Below, piece by piece: positions 5,701 to 27,236 of a stretch of 64,000 nucleotides of DNA (position 1 is its first letter; the number at the start of each line of letters is the position of its first letter). The notes below the pieces were generated by a model. That model was given only the letters and a program-made list of their open reading frames with translations, ran no database searches and was not told the DNA's origin. The DNA is from an uncultured Armatimonadetes bacterium (GTDB taxonomy: Bacteria; Armatimonadota; UBA5829; DTJY01): positions 4,640,001 through 4,704,000 of the forward strand of contig OY970325.1 of the NCBI GenBank assembly GCA_963717145.1, written 5' to 3'. A program made the position numbers and the translations under genes.

Positions 5701-7284
5701 ATGCTTCGGACCGCCATGTGGGAGCCGCTTCAGGAGCCGGCTGTCCGTCTGCTGAAGGACGAGTTCGGCGAGAGCAGGGCCGTCGCTCCGAGGGCATGGT
5801 TCTTCGGCGCGTTTCTCGGCGAGCAGACGTTCCTCACGCTCAAGCGCAATGACAAGACTTACGATGCCAAAGGCGCCGTCGGCCTCTCTCCGGACGAGGA
5901 TCGAGTCACCGGCGTCAGCAGGGCGCTCATCGCCGGACGATGGTTCAACGATCAAGACACTTATTCCGTAGTCATTCCCGGCGCGATAGCGACTGCACTC
6001 GAGATCACCAAGGGCGATATCGGGAAAGCCAAGCTGACCTTCAGCGGCGTCGATTACACAGTCATCGGCATCATGGACAATGCCAAGGTCAAGGCAATCA
6101 CGGATCTCGACAACGAGACGCTCACGCCGGTCGACTTCATCCTGATGAACAAGCTCACCTCACAGGGCAAGTCGATGGGCGAGGCGGGATTCCGCGAATA
6201 CACGCACCTCGAGCCGGACACCACCTTCTTCGTCCCGTACCAGACGCTGATCAACCTCGGCGGCGAGATCCGCTCCATTGCGATCGACTTCGTGACCCCC
6301 ACCGAGGTCAAGTCGGTGCTCGAGAAGCTGATGCCGAGACTCGGCCTCAACCTGTATGCGGGTCTGGATGAGCAAACATTCCGATTCAGCTCGATCGCCA
6401 CTCAGTCCGGCAAAGGATTCGGCGCAGTGTTCATCCCGATCCTGATCGCGGCATTGATTGTTCTGAACACGATGCTCGGATCGGTCTACGAGCGCATAAA
6501 GGAGATACACATCTTCAGCTCGCTAGGCCTGGCGCCGAATCACATCGCCATGCTCTTCATCGCAGAGGCGTTGGTCTATGCGATCCTCGGCGCGGTCGCC
6601 GGATACCTGATCGGGCAGATAGCATCAAAGATAATATATACGTTCGGCTTGCTCCCGGGGCTCTATCTCAACTTCAGCTCGCTCTCGGCGGTGCTCTCGA
6701 CGCTGATCGTCGTCGCCGTAGTGCTTCTCTCAACGATCTACCCGGCGAGGAAAGCATCCGAGGTCGCGACCCCCGCCATCGAGCGCAGTTGGAAGGTGCC
6801 GGACCCCGTGGGCGACATCTGGCAGATCAAGCTGCCGTTCGCGGTCACCGGCGAGCAGGCCATGGGCGTCACGAGCTTCATATCCGAGTGGTTTGGGGCG
6901 TATGAGGAGTACTCAGTCGGCGATTTCGTGACGCAGGATGTCAAGACCTCACTGCGTGAAACGGACTTCGGGGACGCGCATCGCGTCCAGTGCCGAGCGT
7001 GGCTGGCCCCGTTCGATCTCGGAGTCAGCCAGTATGTCACGCTGGAGACGGTGCCGACCGTGATGGAAGATGTCTACGAGGTTCAACTGATCATCAACCG
7101 CGAGAGCGGTGACATATCGAACTGGAAACGAGTGAACCGCAGGTTCCTCAACACTCTTCGGAAGCAGTTCCTGATCTGGCGGACGTTGAGGGCCGAGGAG
7201 CGCGACAAGTATCTGGCAGGCGGTCAGGCCGGTTCACCATCAGCCGGCGCGAGTGTCGCCGTAGAGCCGGGCCCGGCAGGATAG
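2716..7284 (+). CDS. Giant secreted/membrane protein: M28-like/PA domain fused to a MacB/FtsX-type ABC permease
   Basis: Signal peptide, then M28-like IQAYYD..PGAESACGIASLLELAR. TM helices and NMRRRKARTVLT precede a periplasmic domain and the FtsX motif SVYERIKEIHIFSSLG. 1522 aa. Confidence 0.8.
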   Translation: MTNRRVTTLVFLLCSLLSCACFAAPKTKIDPKLAKVYQSLAGDVRTSNLASTVELLASKGSRIAGYPGCESAGDYIHQQFKNIGLKDIKREPFFATVPVDVSASLKVNGKSYKLHSVWPNLVRTSQLPKAGMSGPLMYAGSGKLSAFDGYPVDGSIVLMDFNSGSEWLNAPRLGAKAVVFVEPDTTMRGEAEAKFISIPISIPRYWISKADAASLQALCAKGMPKVTLACESKWERLPTSNITGVIPGSDPKLRDQIIVIQAYYDATSVVPSLAPGAESACGIASLLELARVYKNHPPARTIWFIATSGHFQSLQGMREYLEKHLPELQSPGAGARMGAWFSRWVPGMKHRTVHKPPQIYLMAGLDLSSQTKGVGIFYKGYFYDFREDIQNKFSDIARVCRENSEKVGAVLGFDSAKAFADGVNPIAGKNWRNFIPGKIACDAEAWTLAGARGISFISTDDSRAMVDTPFDTADKVNFANLAQQTKLLACLFSHILNDTNAPEAVDVSKFPITEPSIFSRMTLQGGFARIEGQTLILNLKKGFIPNDPVLGTLVVIRHVSLNKTLMGVRGNMIGMVDDEARFAFPGAAPLTAYQGAARMTNVAAYKLDPADGEIIYSPDMGIFGADYYPTAVTVASGIKNIPIVLFKCKATSVFDLIDPQALRTLPAIEIYDGDTNGRPRMYGFSLAVPEWQVSHVEDVAVIFTMPETRLKIVMAAGPAAVRLVLINSTEKEPEGNGYLVGNGKAITNTSLKVAKDMWNLDEFRISRLRKYRIINEGIDQLHSLAKSEIGMAERDLAAMQYSTFDSHSRAAWGYEARAYPDVQKTAKDVVNGVLFYLALLLPFSYFCERLFFGFPDLKRQIVGVFIVFVAIFMLFRYFHPAFDITMNPAIVFIAFIMLALSVLVTVLVTNKFEEQLKALNRSMSGVHKVDIGRMSIAAAAFSLGVSNMRRRKARTVLTCITLVLLTFTVLSFTSIVQTMRFNKVPAPGKPGYNGLMLRTAMWEPLQEPAVRLLKDEFGESRAVAPRAWFFGAFLGEQTFLTLKRNDKTYDAKGAVGLSPDEDRVTGVSRALIAGRWFNDQDTYSVVIPGAIATALEITKGDIGKAKLTFSGVDYTVIGIMDNAKVKAITDLDNETLTPVDFILMNKLTSQGKSMGEAGFREYTHLEPDTTFFVPYQTLINLGGEIRSIAIDFVTPTEVKSVLEKLMPRLGLNLYAGLDEQTFRFSSIATQSGKGFGAVFIPILIAALIVLNTMLGSVYERIKEIHIFSSLGLAPNHIAMLFIAEALVYAILGAVAGYLIGQIASKIIYTFGLLPGLYLNFSSLSAVLSTLIVVAVVLLSTIYPARKASEVATPAIERSWKVPDPVGDIWQIKLPFAVTGEQAMGVTSFISEWFGAYEEYSVGDFVTQDVKTSLRETDFGDAHRVQCRAWLAPFDLGVSQYVTLETVPTVMEDVYEVQLIINRESGDISNWKRVNRRFLNTLRKQFLIWRTLRAEERDKYLAGGQAGSPSAGASVAVEPGPAG

Positions 7285-21749: not shown

Positions 21750-23555
21750 ATGTCAAAAGAAATCGTAGTAAACGTCGGTACCCGCGAAACGAGAATGGCG
21801 CTCATCGACGCCGGGAAGCTCGTCGAGCTTCACGTCGAGCGCGAGGAGCGGGTCGCCGGCAGTGTATACAAGTGCAGAGTCGCGAACGTGCTTCCCGGAA
21901 TGGATGCCGCGTTCGTCGATATCGGGCTGGAGCGCAATGCCTTCCTGTATGCGGGCGACGTCCTTCCCGAAGCCGGCGAGGAGTTCCCCGCCACGAAGAA
22001 GGAACCTCAGAGGTCCGTGAACATCAAGGACCTGCTCAAGGTCGGTCAGGAGTTGGTCGTCCAGGTAGTCAAAGGCCCGCGCGGAACCAAAGGCGCGCGC
22101 GTATCAACGAGGATATCGCTCCCCGGCAGGTACCTGGTCCTCATGCCCGATGCCGACAACATCGGAATCTCGCGCAAGATAGATGACCCCGCGGAGCGCG
22201 ACCGCCTGAAGAAGATCGCCGACAAGATCAAGCCGCCGAACTGCGGCATGATTGTTCGGACCGAGGCTGAGGGCAGGGGCGACCGCGAACTCCGCGCGGA
22301 TGTGGAGTTCCTCACGCGCATGATGTCGCAGATCCAGGAGAAGGCCAAGGTTACCTCGGCCCCTGGAGTCGTCCATCAGGACCTCAGCCTGGTATTCAAG
22401 ACCATACGCGACGTGTTCGGCGCGAACATCCAGCGGATGTTCATAGACTCGCCGACCGAGTATGACAAGGCCATGGATGTGGTCCATCTCATGTCGCCGA
22501 AGCTCAAATCGCGACTGCTGCTGTATGATGATTCCGAACCGATCTTCGAGCACTTCAGCATCGAGACAGAGATCGACCGGTTGCTCAAACGCAAAGTTTG
22601 GCTCAAGTCCGGTGGCCACCTCACCATTGATGAGACCGAAGCACTGACCACCATTGACGTAAACACCGGTAAGTTCATCGGCAGCACGAGTCTGTCCGAT
22701 ACGATCCTGAAGACGAACCTCGATGCCGCCGGGGAGATCGCACGGCAGCTAAGGCTGCGCGATATCGGCGGGATCATCATCATCGACTTCATCGATATGT
22801 CGAGCGCGAGAGACCGCTCGCACGTCGTGAACGCGCTCGATCGCGCCCTCAAGAAGGACCGCACGCGGACCAAGATCTCGAATATCAGCCCGCTCGGACT
22901 GATCGAGATGACCCGCAAACGGACCGGAGAGACCATCTCCGAGTTGATCAGCGAGGCGTGTCCGTACTGCCAGGGACGAGGAAGCATCCTGTCCCCGGAG
23001 TCGGTGAGCATCAATGTCGAGCGCGAGCTGATGCAGAAGTCCGCTGAGGTCGACGATGAGGCGTTCCTCATCACAGTCAACCCCGAGGTCGCGGAGTTCC
23101 TGATCGGCCCTCGCGGAGAGACGGTCAAGCTGATCGAGGAGCAGATCAGGCGCGCCGTCTACGTGCGGAGCAGCCACGATCAGCACATCGAGAAGTACGA
23201 GATACAGCCCGGCGACCTTCAGGAGATCGAGAAGCAGATGCTTCCGTTCCAGAGGTCGCAGATCGTGGAGTGCGAGGTCGTGCGCAACCCGTTCGTCAGC
23301 CTGCCGAGGGCGGCGGCGTGGGCGGACGGCTACATGGTGGACCTCGCAAACGGCGGGAAGTTCATCGGCCAGAAGGTCAAGGCCCGGCTGATAAGCGTCT
23401 CCCGCTCATACGCGGAGGGCGACGTCCTCAACCCGGTCAAAGCGCCCGGCGAGCGACCGCCCGCCCCGCGCGAGAAAGCCGAGCCGCGTCCGAGAGGCGA
23501 TCGCCGCCCGAGAGGCGACGACCGCCCGAGACGCGACGAACGCTCCGCCGGCTGA
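21750..23555 (+). CDS. rng: Ribonuclease E/G family protein with a C-terminal TRAM-like domain
   Basis: SD AAGGAGGTG; S1 motif VLPGMDAAFVDIG; IDVNTGKF; QLRLRDIGGIIIIDFIDM; CPYCQGRG. Confidence 0.9.
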   Translation: MSKEIVVNVGTRETRMALIDAGKLVELHVEREERVAGSVYKCRVANVLPGMDAAFVDIGLERNAFLYAGDVLPEAGEEFPATKKEPQRSVNIKDLLKVGQELVVQVVKGPRGTKGARVSTRISLPGRYLVLMPDADNIGISRKIDDPAERDRLKKIADKIKPPNCGMIVRTEAEGRGDRELRADVEFLTRMMSQIQEKAKVTSAPGVVHQDLSLVFKTIRDVFGANIQRMFIDSPTEYDKAMDVVHLMSPKLKSRLLLYDDSEPIFEHFSIETEIDRLLKRKVWLKSGGHLTIDETEALTTIDVNTGKFIGSTSLSDTILKTNLDAAGEIARQLRLRDIGGIIIIDFIDMSSARDRSHVVNALDRALKKDRTRTKISNISPLGLIEMTRKRTGETISELISEACPYCQGRGSILSPESVSINVERELMQKSAEVDDEAFLITVNPEVAEFLIGPRGETVKLIEEQIRRAVYVRSSHDQHIEKYEIQPGDLQEIEKQMLPFQRSQIVECEVVRNPFVSLPRAAAWADGYMVDLANGGKFIGQKVKARLISVSRSYAEGDVLNPVKAPGERPPAPREKAEPRPRGDRRPRGDDRPRRDERSAG

Positions 23556-23557
23556 TA

Positions 23558-23635
23558 GATGTCCCCCTTACGAAGGGGGACCGGCCTCCGGGCACTCACG
23601 ATGTCCCCCTTACGAAGGGGGACCGGCCTCCGGGC
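23558..23635. repeat. Two identical 36-bp direct repeats, each with a GTCCCCCTT-acg-AAGGGGGAC hairpin
   Basis: Copies at 23558-23593 and 23600-23635, between convergent genes. Confidence 0.85.
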
Positions 23636-23749
23636 CGAGGGGGTTTCGTCCCCGACGTGTCCGACCAGAACCAACAAGGCCCGTGGATCACCCGATCCGC
23701 GGGCCTTCTCAACTCGGCTGGTTGGTGCGGACCTGAACTCAGAATCCGG

Positions 23750-23781
23750 CATCAACCATCAACCATCCCCCATCAACCATT
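23750..23781. repeat. Heptamer tandem repeat (CATCAAC)n
   Basis: catcaac-catcaac-catcccc-catcaac-catt. Confidence 0.7.
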
Positions 23782-23785
23782 CCCC

Positions 23786-24460
23786 CTACGCCGCAATCGT
23801 CGCGCTCTGGAGATCGGACCAGCCGCCCTTCTTGCCGTCCTTGTAGACCCAGCGCATCTTATAGTGCGCCTGCTTGTTTCCATCGCCGGGCGGGAACGGC
23901 ACAGCAAGCGTATTCCGGGTCGACATATTGACATACCGCATATCGGCCTCGGGGTCCGCCGGTGGGTCCCCGACCTTCACCCAGACCTCGACCGCCCTGA
24001 CGCCTTCGGGCTTGCCCTTTGTGATGTCGTTCGCGTTCTGGTTCCGGATGCGGAGAGTATGCCTCAGGAGGGCGCTGATGTTGATACCTGCGACCGGCTT
24101 ATCCCGTGACCCCTCCGGACCCGGCGGGGGTGAAGACATGCCGCGTTTCGGCAGCCCGAGCGAGGCGCGCTGCTGGTTTGTCATATTCGGATGCCCCTGG
24201 ATGCGCGCCGCCATCGACCTGATCTGCTTCGCGAGGGTAGCCCTCTTGGCCTTCTTAGCCGAACACAAGCCTCTGGCAGTGGTCCGCGCCCTATCATGAT
24301 CGGCCCTGGCCTGAGCGAACTCCGGCGTTGTGGCGACCAGTTCGGCCAGGTCCGCCTCCGTCAGTCCGAACTGCTCCGGATTGGCGGTGAGGTAAGCTAC
24401 ATAGCGGTTCGCCCACTCCTGTAGTTTCAGATCGCTCTCCGGCAAATAGTCTCTTCCCAC
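23786..24460 (-). CDS. Hypothetical protein with an N-terminal helical region and a C-terminal FN3-like beta domain
   Basis: GGAGG SD and GTG start at 24460; DYLPESD..W; LGL; KPEGVRAVEVW; YKMRWV..G..GGWSD. Confidence 0.75.
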   Translation of the reverse strand: MGRDYLPESDLKLQEWANRYVAYLTANPEQFGLTEADLAELVATTPEFAQARADHDRARTTARGLCSAKKAKRATLAKQIRSMAARIQGHPNMTNQQRASLGLPKRGMSSPPPGPEGSRDKPVAGINISALLRHTLRIRNQNANDITKGKPEGVRAVEVWVKVGDPPADPEADMRYVNMSTRNTLAVPFPPGDGNKQAHYKMRWVYKDGKKGGWSDLQSATIAA

Positions 24461-24574
24461 GATGATGATACCTCCAGGCTGGCGTGACCGACGGGAGTCG
24501 GTCCATGATCTCGCGGCCGGCCTCTGATGCCGGCCACCCGGTATAATCATCGGGTATCGATGGCAGTATCTTTA

Positions 24575-24772
24575 GGGGAGAACTCCCGGCTCTACCTCCG
24601 GGAGTTCTTGTCACCATACCCGAGTACTCTCGGCAGCATGCCCAAGAGTTCTTGCCACTAGCCCCAAGAGCTGACGGCAACACACCCGAGAACTCCGGGC
24701 ACTGCACCCAGGAGTTCTCGGCACTACACCCGGAAGCTCACGCCACTATACCCGAGAGCCCTCGGCAAAGCG
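24575..24772. repeat. Non-coding tandem array of nine degenerate 22-bp units with a palindromic core
   Basis: Unit starts 24575, 24597, 24619, 24641, 24663, 24685, 24707, 24729 and 24751; consensus about CCCGAGAGCTCTCGGCACTACA. Confidence 0.85.
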
Positions 24773-24810
24773 GCGTAGAACCCAGGAATGACACGCTAGG
24801 GAGCCGACAT

Positions 24811-24834
24811 CGTCATGCTGAACTCGATTCAGCA
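24811..24834. repeat. Short REP-like hairpin GTCATGCTGAACTCGATTCAGCA
   Basis: tgctgaa-ctcga-ttcagca stem just downstream of the 24861 stop. Confidence 0.45.
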
Positions 24835-24860
24835 CCCACGGTGGAGGCTCCCTGTGTGGA

Positions 24861-25970
24861 CTACTTCGACTTGGCCGGGGGCGGTGGCGCTTTCTTCGGG
24901 GCGGGCGCGCTCTTCAGGACATCGAGGAGGCCGGAGGGGACCATGAGGCGTCCGTTCACGACCTTCATCTTCTGAGCGAGCTTGATCGTCCCGCCGGTCC
25001 ACTCGATGGTGTCTTTCCCCGGCACGAGCGTGTACCGGTTCTTGCCGACGAAGAGCTTCGCCTCTTTCCCGAGCCATTCCACCTTCGCGCCGGGGATCTT
25101 GGCCGCGAGATCGCGGGTCGAGATAGGCTTGCCTGCCACCACGGATGGCTTAGTGGGCGAGGGAACCTGTGAGCCACCCATCGGTTCGTCGGCATAAAGG
25201 ATCTCACCCGTGATCGCATCTACCCCCGCGGCATAGGTCAGGTGCTCCCCCTGGGCATTGTCGCCAAGCACATCGAAGGCCCACATGGTGTTATCCGGGT
25301 CTTGAGAGAGCTCCGGATCGTAGTTTGCGCCTCCCGTTACCAGCCCTTTCGCGGTTTTCACTATCTCTATCGCCTGCTCTGCGGTGATCTGCGGCGCTTG
25401 AGGAGGCGGCATCGGAACTGCAAGACGGGAGCAGCCGTAATACTGAATACGACCGTCTGCGGGGCTCACCCTCACGCTGATGCTATTGGGAATCCACGCT
25501 CCGTAAGTATTCTTCCGTCGCCAGGAAAACCACCATCCATCGCCTTTCCACTTCGGTTCCTTCAATTGGAACCCCATGGTATCAAACTCGGCGTACTTTG
25601 CTCGGGCAAAGTTTTCCGCGATCTGCCGGCACTGCTCCTGCGTGAGTGGACCCGTAGGTTCCTCCGTTCGCACCTCCGAACGGGCTTCGTAGTAACTGGC
25701 CCTCGTCACCTCACCTGTGACGGCGTCGACGGTCCACCTATGGTCCTCATTCTGGGAGTCATAGATACGATAGGTTCTCTCATGCTCCCATTCGACACCT
25801 TCCAGGTCCTCCTCGATGGGATGGCAGGTAAGCTGGAGCGTGCTATTCCCCTCGAACGCTCGGACCGCATCCATAGCCTGCCCCCGACTGATCACCGACT
25901 GGCCCCTGCATCCGGCGGCCATGGTTACCAGCGCATAGCATATCAAAGCAAGCATTCGCAAACGTTTCAT
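24861..25970 (-). CDS. Secreted protein with PepSY/YcdB-like repeats and a C-terminal stalk-like module; paralog A
   Basis: Signal or lipoprotein-like N-terminus; VDAVTGEV, ITAEQAIEIV and VDAITGEI motifs; C-terminal VVNGRLMVP. Confidence 0.7.
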   Translation of the reverse strand: MKRLRMLALICYALVTMAAGCRGQSVISRGQAMDAVRAFEGNSTLQLTCHPIEEDLEGVEWEHERTYRIYDSQNEDHRWTVDAVTGEVTRASYYEARSEVRTEEPTGPLTQEQCRQIAENFARAKYAEFDTMGFQLKEPKWKGDGWWFSWRRKNTYGAWIPNSISVRVSPADGRIQYYGCSRLAVPMPPPQAPQITAEQAIEIVKTAKGLVTGGANYDPELSQDPDNTMWAFDVLGDNAQGEHLTYAAGVDAITGEILYADEPMGGSQVPSPTKPSVVAGKPISTRDLAAKIPGAKVEWLGKEAKLFVGKNRYTLVPGKDTIEWTGGTIKLAQKMKVVNGRLMVPSGLLDVLKSAPAPKKAPPPPAKSK

Positions 25971-26138: not shown

Positions 26139-27236
26139 CTACTTCGACTTAGCTGGGGTCGATGGAGCTTTCTTCGAGGCGGGCGGGCTCTTCAGGACAT
26201 CGAGGAGGCCGGAGGGGACCATGAGGCGTCCGTTCACGAGCTTCATCTTCTGGGAGAGCTTGATCGTGCCGCCGGTCCACTCGATGGTGTCCTTCCCCGG
26301 CACGAGCGTGTACCGGTTCCTGCCGACGAAGAGCTTTGCTTCCTTCCCCAGCCAGTGGACCCGCGCGCCCGGTACCTTGGCCGCGAGGTCGCGGATGGAG
26401 ATGGGATTGCCGGTACGCCCATCTCTTGGCGGGCTGGACGGGAGACGTGCCCTTGATACGGAGAGGACTTCCCCCGTTTCCGCGTCAATGGCTACTGAAT
26501 TGCTGACATACCGGTCTTCCGCATCCAGCCCGCCGATCTCAGTGTTCCACGACACGTTCCCGTCCGGGTCCGCGACCAGGAGCGGCCCTTGCACGTCCAC
26601 AACTTCCACGATCCCCGCGGCTTGGGCAGCAAGGTCGAGCGCCTCAGCGGAGGTCACCTGGGGTGGAGGGGGATTCGGTGTTGGAACGCGAATGGAAGTA
26701 TACTCCAGTATGTAACCGGTTTCAGGTGCAACCACTACAGCAACCATATTGATGGTCAACGCGTCGTATGTGACCCTCTGCTGCCAACCGTAGAGCCAGC
26801 CGGTGCCTATCCATCTCTCCATCGTCAAGACGAATCCCATGGTATCGAATCCATTGTACTTCGACTGAGCGAAGTCCTCCGCAGTTGGCCGATATGCTTC
26901 CTTGGTAAATGGCTCGCCGGGCTCGCCATATGGCACTGACTCACCTAGATCGGCATATGAGGCGTGATTCACCTCTGCACTATGTCCATCCACCGTCCAC
27001 AGGCGACGGGACGCCGGATAGTCCGCAGTCCTCAATGTGTACCAAGAGCGGTGACTCCATGCCGGTCCGCTGTCATCCTCTTGCAGTTCTACGCACGTAA
27101 GCGCCAGAGAAGGTTCGTTCTCGAAGTCACGGACAGCCTGCTTAGCAGCCTCTTCCGTAATCAGCCCCTGTGCGAGGACAAGTGCACACTGGAGCACGAG
27201 CCAAGCGGCAATGGCAACGCGAATGATGAGTTTCAT
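26139..27236 (-). CDS. Secreted PepSY/YcdB-like protein; paralog B
   Basis: Same architecture as paralog A; the last ~85 aa are nearly identical to it. Confidence 0.7.
   Translation of the reverse strand: MKLIIRVAIAAWLVLQCALVLAQGLITEEAAKQAVRDFENEPSLALTCVELQEDDSGPAWSHRSWYTLRTADYPASRRLWTVDGHSAEVNHASYADLGESVPYGEPGEPFTKEAYRPTAEDFAQSKYNGFDTMGFVLTMERWIGTGWLYGWQQRVTYDALTINMVAVVVAPETGYILEYTSIRVPTPNPPPPQVTSAEALDLAAQAAGIVEVVDVQGPLLVADPDGNVSWNTEIGGLDAEDRYVSNSVAIDAETGEVLSVSRARLPSSPPRDGRTGNPISIRDLAAKVPGARVHWLGKEAKLFVGRNRYTLVPGKDTIEWTGGTIKLSQKMKLVNGRLMVPSGLLDVLKSPPASKKAPSTPAKSK

Follow-up and report, generated by a model that had tools for sequence, protein, structure and literature searches.

The question raised by this locus is what a run of evenly spaced 22-bp repeats does directly upstream of a stand-alone gene, and which component of the cell reads it. 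Both lie in a stretch of 64,000 nucleotides (positions 4,640,001 to 4,704,000 of contig OY970325.1, assembly GCA_963717145.1; hereafter the window) from an uncultured Armatimonadetes bacterium, and the gene is termed the helix-FN3 gene here after the predicted fold of its product. A preliminary description, made from the letters of the window, had interpreted the pair as a two-part module in which the array would serve as a phased platform for protein binding, of the iteron, centromere or operator kind, or as a repeat RNA. Our analysis strongly supports the module and favours the platform, and it adds two elements that the description had missed, a family of paralogs and a sigma-28-type promoter. 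The pairing of repeat and gene points to an undescribed gene-control cassette. The coordinates of the features are collected in Table 1.

The exact 22-bp periodicity reported earlier for positions 24575-24772 was borne out by autocorrelation and by a register layout of nine units. The self-match of the array reached 0.59, 0.64 and 0.63 at lags of 22, 44 and 66 and did not exceed 0.39 at any other lag between 1 and 69. At its thresholds, Tandem Repeats Finder (TRF) reported a single segment in the array, 24700-24754, with a period of 22 and 2.5 copies, which indicates that most of the array is too degenerate for this program. The observation that spacing is kept while sequence drifts is thereby upheld, the register being exact although TRF sees so few copies. 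On the plus strand the consensus unit is CCCGAGAGTTCTCGGCACTACA. Its arms CCGAGA and TCTCGG form a dyad, as had been proposed for a palindromic core, but the individual units are imperfect. The units are contiguous 22-mers without unique spacers, again as first described, and this rules out an array of clustered regularly interspaced short palindromic repeats (CRISPR). Dispersed palindromes of the repetitive extragenic palindrome (REP) or bacterial interspersed mosaic element type were ruled out as well, because the window array is single-copy in the 5.37-Mb genome (self-match E 1.5e-113, all others E >=1) and 18 of the 25 searched arrays were unique to their locus. An E-value search of positions 23000-25500 against Rfam returned four chance-level rows, of which the best reached 20.9 bits where the gathering score is 60. 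The array extends roughly from -37 to -235, counted from the transcription start predicted for the helix-FN3 gene. The further degenerate unit claimed at 24549-24570 proved not to be a repeat; these positions form the spacer and the -10 element of the sigma-28-type promoter. The hairpin GACCGAC-N4-GTCGGTC that had been noted between the array and the ribosome-binding site (RBS) was located in the predicted leader.

Evidence for the module came from the genome itself, a single contig that encodes 25 intact paralogs of 215-227 amino acids along with one broken fragment. Fifteen of them, including the window copy, end in ...SATIAA and are referred to as subfamily A, and the ten members of subfamily B carry a short C-terminal extension. 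Tandem arrays were scored within 800 nt upstream of each gene, with a score of >=13 at lags of 19-25, 40-45 or 61-66 as the criterion and 400 random windows of 800 nt as the control. By this measure 24 of the 25 paralogs possess an upstream array of their own, own12 being the sole exception, compared with 16 of the 400 random windows; at a score of >=20 the counts were 20/25 and 2/400. The periods were 21, 22, 24 or 41-44 bp, with 22 or 24 bp at own00, own01, own02, own04 and own06. The sequence of the unit is different at each locus and is shared only by own11 and own13, whose proteins are 94% identical. Most units are dyad-symmetric, and plain direct repeats without a fold were found at own04, own06, own10 and own16. 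The genome contains other tandem arrays with periods of 40-44 bp, but these are mostly REP hairpins of a GTAG type and belong to a different class.

A profile of the 25 paralogs retrieved 6257 cluster representatives at E <=0.001 and 489 at <=1e-30, nearly all of about 220 residues and affiliated with Planctomycetota, Armatimonadota, Verrucomicrobiota, Acidobacteriota and Bacteroidota. Among the window genome and 40 relatives, the family was present in six of the 41 genomes, all inside the window's taxonomic family. Five of ten members of that taxonomic family were positive, with 13, 5, 2 and 2 copies and one fragment (G009, 42 residues). Sixteen of the 19 loci in these relatives carried an upstream array with a score of >=20 and a period of 21, 42 or 63. 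At orthologous loci in two species of one genus the unit was kept, with 6.6 versus 7.4 copies at one locus and 9.9 versus 13.8 at the other. A scan of one genome per species yielded 149 relatives, mostly from Phycisphaerae, Pirellulales and other Planctomycetota, with Verrucomicrobiaceae, Pyrinomonadales, Chthonomonadales, a Tannerella and a cyanobacterial metagenome-assembled genome (MAG) as minor hosts; seven family loci came from viral contigs. For the distant loci, 600 nt upstream were scored in the 51 of 87 loci whose match starts within the first five residues. Arrays with a score of >=20 were found upstream of 16 of the 51 and at none of 47 downstream controls, and their periods were 21 (seven arrays), 42 (five), 63 (two), 23 (one) and 62 (one). 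The remaining distant loci had weaker arrays, also often with a period of 21, 42 or 63. The preliminary description had listed a lack of arrays upstream of homologous genes among its grounds for refutation; such arrays were found at nearly all paralogs, at most loci of the relatives and at a part of the distant loci. A search of the literature, with supplementary files outside its scope, found no description of the module.

At the window's site the module is lineage-specific, since none of nine relatives has a family gene in the roughly 1.5 kb that follow its RNase G gene. This absence, together with the abundance of tandem repeats in the genome (635 TRF clusters, with many different periods), agrees with functionless minisatellites that hitch-hike with a mobile gene. 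We consider such a neutral origin highly improbable. Array and gene stay linked in different phyla at an unchanged period, the downstream controls were empty, and the core of the repeat, described below, is conserved at a protein divergence at which neutral DNA would be randomised.

Some family loci in Phycisphaerae MAGs and IMG/VR contigs (L086, L098, L142-L146, L079 and L136) have phage-type genes or a methylase gene as neighbours, namely a divergent large terminase gene, a convergent phage capsid gene or an N6/N4 DNA methylase gene directly downstream. No neighbour gene was generally conserved across the distant loci, and only subsets adjoin methylase, terminase or capsid genes.

The -35 element of the predicted promoter, at 24574, abuts the last repeat unit, the array edge being at 24575. 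In subfamily A, the interval between array and gene shares a CTAAAG-like motif followed after 18 bases by a GATAAT-like motif. The flagellar sigma-28 consensus is given, in the portions of the sources drawn on here, as TAAAGTTT-N11-GCCGATAA or as a -35 element TAAA combined with a -10 element GCCGATAA (PMC2859248; PMC8325347). Our scan used the published consensus alone, with a spacer of 15-17, at most two mismatches and 700 nt upstream of each gene. The window promoter showed two mismatches to TAAA-N15..17-GCCGATAA with a spacer of 16. A match was obtained for 12 of the 25 family genes, all with a spacer of 16, against 101 of 4000 random windows, and, among the distant loci, for 12 of 51 regions upstream of the gene, compared with 3 of 48 downstream of it. 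The placement of these matches differed between the subfamilies: the promoter lies downstream of the array in 8/8 cases of subfamily A and upstream of it in 4/4 cases of subfamily B, so that a subfamily-B array falls in the leader. A sigma-54 motif was found at none of the 25 family genes (95 of 4000 windows), and no sigma-70-type site was detected in 23550-24900. Two further ideas were dropped. The sequence CCGATAAT is not a general promoter word, with 108 occurrences against 88 expected, and the arrays are not copies of the promoter's -35 and -10 elements, their scores being no different from those of shuffled sequences (p 0.84 and 0.68).

The genome encodes flagellin and two FliA-type sigma factors, whose scores of 250.1 and 226.8 bits exceed the TIGR02479 cut-off of 189.6. 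One of the two sigma genes is located in a flagellar cluster; the other is solitary, has a TTGACA-type promoter and comes after a tandem set of four 43-bp hairpins with long stems that trails the gene before it. A similar motif precedes an open reading frame (ORF) that has a FliG N-terminal domain. Judged from such motifs, the promoter places the family, provisionally, with the late motility-class genes of this lineage. Co-occurrence with flagella was uninformative, as flagellin was present in 32 of the 41 genomes and the relative G006 has five family genes but no flagellin match.

Both sequence conservation and folding bear on whether the repeats act in DNA or in RNA. The array of the Phycisphaerae loci L096, L098, L101 and L109 extends across the promoter, with a 12-bp core at intervals of 21 bp and with the -35 and -10 elements in two consecutive spacers between cores; these two promoter elements are about 21 bp apart from centre to centre, the length of a repeat unit. 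Among L098, L101 and L109, whose proteins are 59-69% identical, core positions 0-4, 8 and 9 showed a cross-species identity of 70-93%, compared with 26-59% for the spacers. A conserved core amid drifting spacers fits sites that would be read on double-stranded DNA. The predicted folding energies gave no overall strand bias, the sense strand being the more stable one in 33 of 69 arrays (Wilcoxon p 0.62). A phased platform at the DNA level is thus favoured over a repeat RNA because of this absent bias, the existence of non-palindromic arrays, the occurrence of arrays on either side of the predicted promoter and the conservation between species of a short core at exact 21-bp spacing. Of the two options offered by the preliminary description, the platform was retained and the repeat RNA was not favoured.

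An RNA function could take the form of a pair resembling the type III toxin-antitoxin system ToxIN, or of a protein-bound leader that controls translation. The layout of tandem repeats, hairpins and a stand-alone gene of about 220 codons is indeed ToxIN-like, the family is many-copy and patchy (6/41 genomes), and some copies reside on viral contigs near terminase, capsid and methylase genes. The arrays of subfamily B would be transcribed, given their upstream promoters, and the sense strand was favoured in eight of ten of them by raw folding energy; by z-score this held for only six of ten, which is not convincing. In subfamily A, by contrast, the promoter stands between array and gene in 8/8 cases, the window included. 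Several arrays lack predicted structure, the Rfam search gave no match, and neither the sequence family nor the fold of the protein resembles ToxN or AbiQ. Known antitoxin repeats are, moreover, much longer than a 21-nt unit. We therefore regard an RNA role as improbable. The leader RNA of the window gene itself had a folding energy of -35.3 kcal/mol with an unexceptional z-score of -1.43, its start being derived from the promoter motif.

In the protein collection the helix-FN3 gene is entered as a 254-residue product (P0001) whose frame begins at ATG 24550, inside the predicted -10 element. Translation is more likely to start at GTG 24460, since this codon follows nine bases after the RBS GGAGG (24471-24475) and aligns with the starts of all paralogs. 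An AlphaFold2 model computed from an alignment of the 25 paralogs (mean predicted local distance difference test, pLDDT, 91.1) consists of helices at residues 10-26, 35-88 (54 residues) and 95-101 and a beta-sandwich at residues 118-224. The beta-sandwich aligned with numerous FN3 chains (6rpx_A with Z 11.6, a root-mean-square deviation of 2.5 and 92 aligned residues; 4yfe_B with Z 11.5). The matches from a Foldseek search, as had been proposed, were exclusively FN3, and the Pfam fn3 model did not match the window protein. Modelled alone, the N-terminal domain reached a pLDDT of 94; its structural matches were confined to helical hairpins of a generic kind (best Z 6.6), and Foldseek returned nothing for it at E <=0.001. 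Pfam, NCBIfam, PHROGs and PADLOC yielded no meaningful family and no known DNA-binding domain. Pfam gave nothing above noise, Rod_CreS scoring 16 bits where the cut-off is 100; PADLOC reported only TmtA, at E 0.0034, for the window protein and nothing for two other family members, and the ESM Atlas returned only clusters of 'hypothetical protein'.

The protein is predicted to form a homodimer in which the long helices pair in antiparallel fashion around a dyad at residue 62. The interface score ipSAE was 0.73, against 0.30 for the best of three controls; of 30 proteins solved as same-chain pairs, 20 attained this mark, compared with 1 of 23 proteins solved in single-chain form. Contact agreement between runs was at least 87%, and the pLDDT of the partner was at least 84. 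The 224-residue product had been described as basic. This holds for the window copy with an isoelectric point (pI) of 9.9 but not for the family, in which the 25 paralogs have a median pI of 5.95. Only the segment 55-100 is mildly basic, its median net charge being +4, with K69, R81, R86 and R98 conserved. An ssrA-like degron at the C-terminal ...AA was considered and dropped, since the final FN3 strand makes up this terminus and its sequence is not constant in the relatives (ATIAA, ATIVG, ATITG and others).

In the account that we put forward tentatively, as a quite possible but less than probable one, array and gene form a self-contained autoregulatory cassette with the adjacent protein as the binder. 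The array would be a helically phased platform of binding sites next to the sigma-28-type promoter, with all sites on the same face of the DNA because there is one site per two helical turns. The binder would be a symmetric dimer with a long antiparallel helical bundle and an FN3 domain at each end. Such dimers would bind cooperatively, in a row, to the array specific to their paralog and in this way set the output of the gene's own promoter, resulting in autoregulation through a high-capacity operator with a threshold. The binding of a protein to the array, the identity of that protein and the sign of the regulation are elements that we infer. The adjacent protein is the most likely reader, as it is the sole locus-specific component at each locus. 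In the reader's favour also counts the mildly basic, conserved helix of its predicted symmetric dimer. The protein itself may set the repeat length, because its modelled 54-residue helix of about 80 Å is close to the roughly 71 Å of 21 bp of B-DNA. Orthologs with 58-64% protein identity keep the array core, whereas the paralogs own19 and own22, with 71% identity, have unrelated arrays with zero 9-mers in common. This contrast, seen in sequence comparisons, is the pattern expected when duplicated pairs of protein and site are pushed apart.

Several observations weigh against this account. The family is acidic overall, its N-terminal domain is generic in fold and it lacks a recognisable DNA-binding domain, as noted above. 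New arrays also seem to arise by amplification of arbitrary local sequence. The 43-bp unit at own03 includes part of the segment that precedes the arrays of close paralogs. Seeding from arbitrary sequence is awkward for a dedicated binder, because the protein would need to recognise that sequence already. In addition, four of the array types have orphan copies elsewhere, adjoined by unrelated genes and by no member of the family. Finally, L144, an IMG/VR contig, combines a protein of the group with GTCGCG arrays, 83% identical to those of L096 and L098, with an array of the TTCC-N9-GGAA type, situated some 300 nt before the gene, which is at 6001. Its protein shares almost no residues exclusively with the group that carries TTCC-N9-GGAA arrays. 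The mismatch reflects either a natural swap of array and gene, that is, a true uncoupling, or a chimeric metagenome assembly.

The same observations lend themselves to a cis-regulatory platform that is read by other sequence-specific factors or by the geometry of the DNA, with the helix-FN3 gene as regulated cargo. In the geometric version, units placed every two helical turns would add small bends in phase and produce curved or wrappable DNA at the promoter. A period that is kept while the sequence is not, arrays apparently born from arbitrary local sequence, the combination in L144, the acidic proteins without a recognisable DNA-binding domain and the flexible position of the array relative to the promoter all agree with such a reading. 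Pure geometry, however, leaves the conservation of the 12-bp core (70-93%) amid drifting spacers unexplained, and the periods of 22 and 24 bp at own00, own01, own02, own04 and own06 would not sum bends in one plane. Other factors would have to number about 22 in one genome, each matched to its array, and the adjacent gene is the only paralog-specific component seen. We judge this reading somewhat unlikely, though a serious contender.

The homogeneity of many arrays bears on a role as a contingency element or rheostat, in which the gain and loss of whole units by slippage would tune or switch expression with no dedicated binder. Many arrays are young by their unit-to-unit match, which is 90-98% at own03, own10, own11, own14 and own20, and the number of units varies between orthologous loci. 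The addition of whole 21-bp units, however, preserves helical phase and would have little effect unless something binds. Degenerate arrays such as that of the window slip poorly yet hold an exact register, and conservation of the core across species is unnecessary for slippage. Little probability attaches to such a mechanism.

An extended form of the cassette with the adjacent protein as binder would treat the helix-FN3 dimer as a molecular ruler of about 21 bp that tiles head-to-head on a private array interdigitated with the sigma-28 -35 and -10 elements. A cell would then hold about 25 insulated, switch-like circuits, possibly with a stochastic or mutually exclusive choice of paralog in the motile state, based on a new DNA-binding architecture and amounting to a natural library of orthogonal protein-operator pairs. 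We regard this extension as doubtful.

One of the orphan sites, at about 546 kb, consists of a 22-bp array back to back with a 43-bp array of 12 units by the register layout, and is preceded by the same short segment as the arrays of own01-04. The orphan arrays were considered as a regulon, an idea that was rejected since their neighbours (radical SAM, YcxB, TIM barrel, FGE-sulfatase, Mrr and KdpD) have no common theme.

Further repeats were noted in the window. After the RNase G stop codon, a unit of roughly 51 bp occurs twice in tandem (23559-23640), each copy with a GTCCCCCTT-ACGA-AGGGGGAC hairpin; this looks like a repeat of the REP or terminator type, and a three-copy variant with a 43-bp period occurs at genome position 4417718-4417838. 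CATCAAC heptamers (4.4 copies, 23750-23785) immediately follow the stop codon of the helix-FN3 gene, and a period of 7 is the commonest tandem-repeat period genome-wide (112/635 TRF clusters). Within the 3' end of the RNase E/G gene, an 18-bp unit is repeated three times (23490-23543) and encodes a basic tail with the motif PRGD(D/R)RP. The regions 24861-25970 and 26139-27236 encode adjacent paralogous secreted proteins with PepSY, DUF4901 and Cu_amine_oxidN1 domains, nearly identical over their C-terminal 80 or so residues.

Table 1 Features of the helix-FN3 locus and related loci elsewhere in the genome (positions in the window unless preceded by C1)
Feature	Position	Strand	Details
22-bp repeat array	24575..24772	.	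nine contiguous units, dyad core, arms CCGAGA/TCTCGG
Sigma-28 (FliA)-type promoter, predicted	24547..24574	minus	-35 TAAA 24574..24571, 16-nt spacer, -10 CCCGATGA 24554..24547
Predicted 5' leader, ~80 nt	24461..24540	minus	hairpins 24515-24535 and 24486-24503; RBS GGAGG 24471-24475
Helix-FN3 gene, 224-aa product, GTG start	23786..24460	minus	ORF, RBS, paralog alignment
FliA/WhiG-type sigma gene (L151)	C1:3299321-3299992		
FliA/WhiG-type sigma gene (L152)	C1:273050-273718		
Orphan array (L162)	C1:546374-546997		
Orphan array (L163)	C1:1805382-1805668		
Orphan array (L159)	C1:4716195-4716381		
Orphan array (L160)	C1:895087-895273		
Orphan array (L161)	C1:1292442-1292600		

The family is large and unnamed, and its N-terminal half is without a domain model. 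Its companion array, with a unit of fixed length and free sequence, is regulatory DNA of unusual clarity that lends itself well to testing. Should the array be read by the adjacent protein, a new DNA-binding architecture would be at hand and one genome would supply some two dozen orthogonal pairs of protein and operator; otherwise, the arrays would be regulatory DNA read by geometry or by other factors. The sigma-28-type promoter offers a link to the motility programme in this lineage and a direct experimental handle. The present analysis contributes a full count of the family in a single complete genome, the prediction of a dimer and a sigma-28-type promoter that takes either of two positions with respect to the array.

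The layout of the module works like the operator arrays of partition and copy-control systems and like iterons, and it looks like a type III toxin-antitoxin pair. It does not fit the definition of any of these, as no Rep, ParA/ParM or ToxN-type protein and no recognisable ribbon-helix-helix protein was found and the promoter motif lies between array and gene in subfamily A. Plasmid centromere and operator arrays combined with autoregulators are known from ParR-parC of R1 and pSK41, the omega heptad arrays of pSM19035 and SopB-sopC of F. As in these, tandem repeats are found here at or around the promoter of the presumed binder's gene and provide many sites that may be filled cooperatively, and the periods of about 20 bp in pSK41 and 43 bp in sopC are close to the 21-22 and 42-43 bp observed here. 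Unlike partition systems, the locus has no adjoining gene for a ParA or ParM NTPase, its flanks being RNase E/G, DUF2344 and the PepSY/Cu_amine_oxidN1 proteins, and the protein matches neither the ribbon-helix-helix nor the ParB family, its N-terminal fold search being generically helical (best Z 6.6). The family also comprises 25 chromosomal copies with repeat sequences of their own and a sigma-28-type promoter. Iteron origins with Rep initiators include those with 22-bp iterons in R6K and pPS10, and that of RK2. They share with the window locus a spacing of about 22 bp beside the gene of the presumed binder, the window having nine units at exactly 22 bp. They differ in that no Rep or winged-helix family was found here in Pfam or NCBIfam, the fold being a helical hairpin with FN3, that 25 loci exist on one chromosome, that many units are palindromes and that up to 14 units flank or overlap the promoter. 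The iteron and centromere labels of the preliminary description were accordingly given up, as no Rep, ParA, ParM or ParB-like gene was present and the 25 copies are scattered along one chromosome.

Type III toxin-antitoxin systems such as ToxIN, CptIN and TenpIN, to the extent that they are portrayed in the sections of PMC3401426 and PMC8860590 used here, resemble the module in having a repeat array directly upstream of a stand-alone gene. The repeat sequence varies among members in both, and both are many-copy, patchy and also found on phage-like contigs. The helix-FN3 protein, in contrast, is not of the ToxN, AbiQ, CptN or TenpN family or fold, the promoter of subfamily A separates array and gene, and a strand-specific RNA structure is lacking. 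With promoters of the sigma-28 type (FliA/SigD/WhiG) the locus shares the TAAA-N16-xCCGATxA match and the presence of FliA-type sigma factors in the genome, whereas the helix-FN3 gene is not a recognised flagellar or chemotaxis gene. A phased array of 5-14 sites is not known to us from any sigma-28 promoter. There is a likeness to the activator-dependent aer promoter of E. coli, which, in the part of PMC2859248 that concerns it, has extra DNA sites (for CRP) upstream of a sigma-28 promoter. In a synthetic yeast system, as outlined in the portion of PMC3322331 consulted here, repeated decoy sites for a transcription factor sharpen the dose-response; by functional analogy only, the many tandem sites of the helix-FN3 arrays could turn graded control into a threshold.

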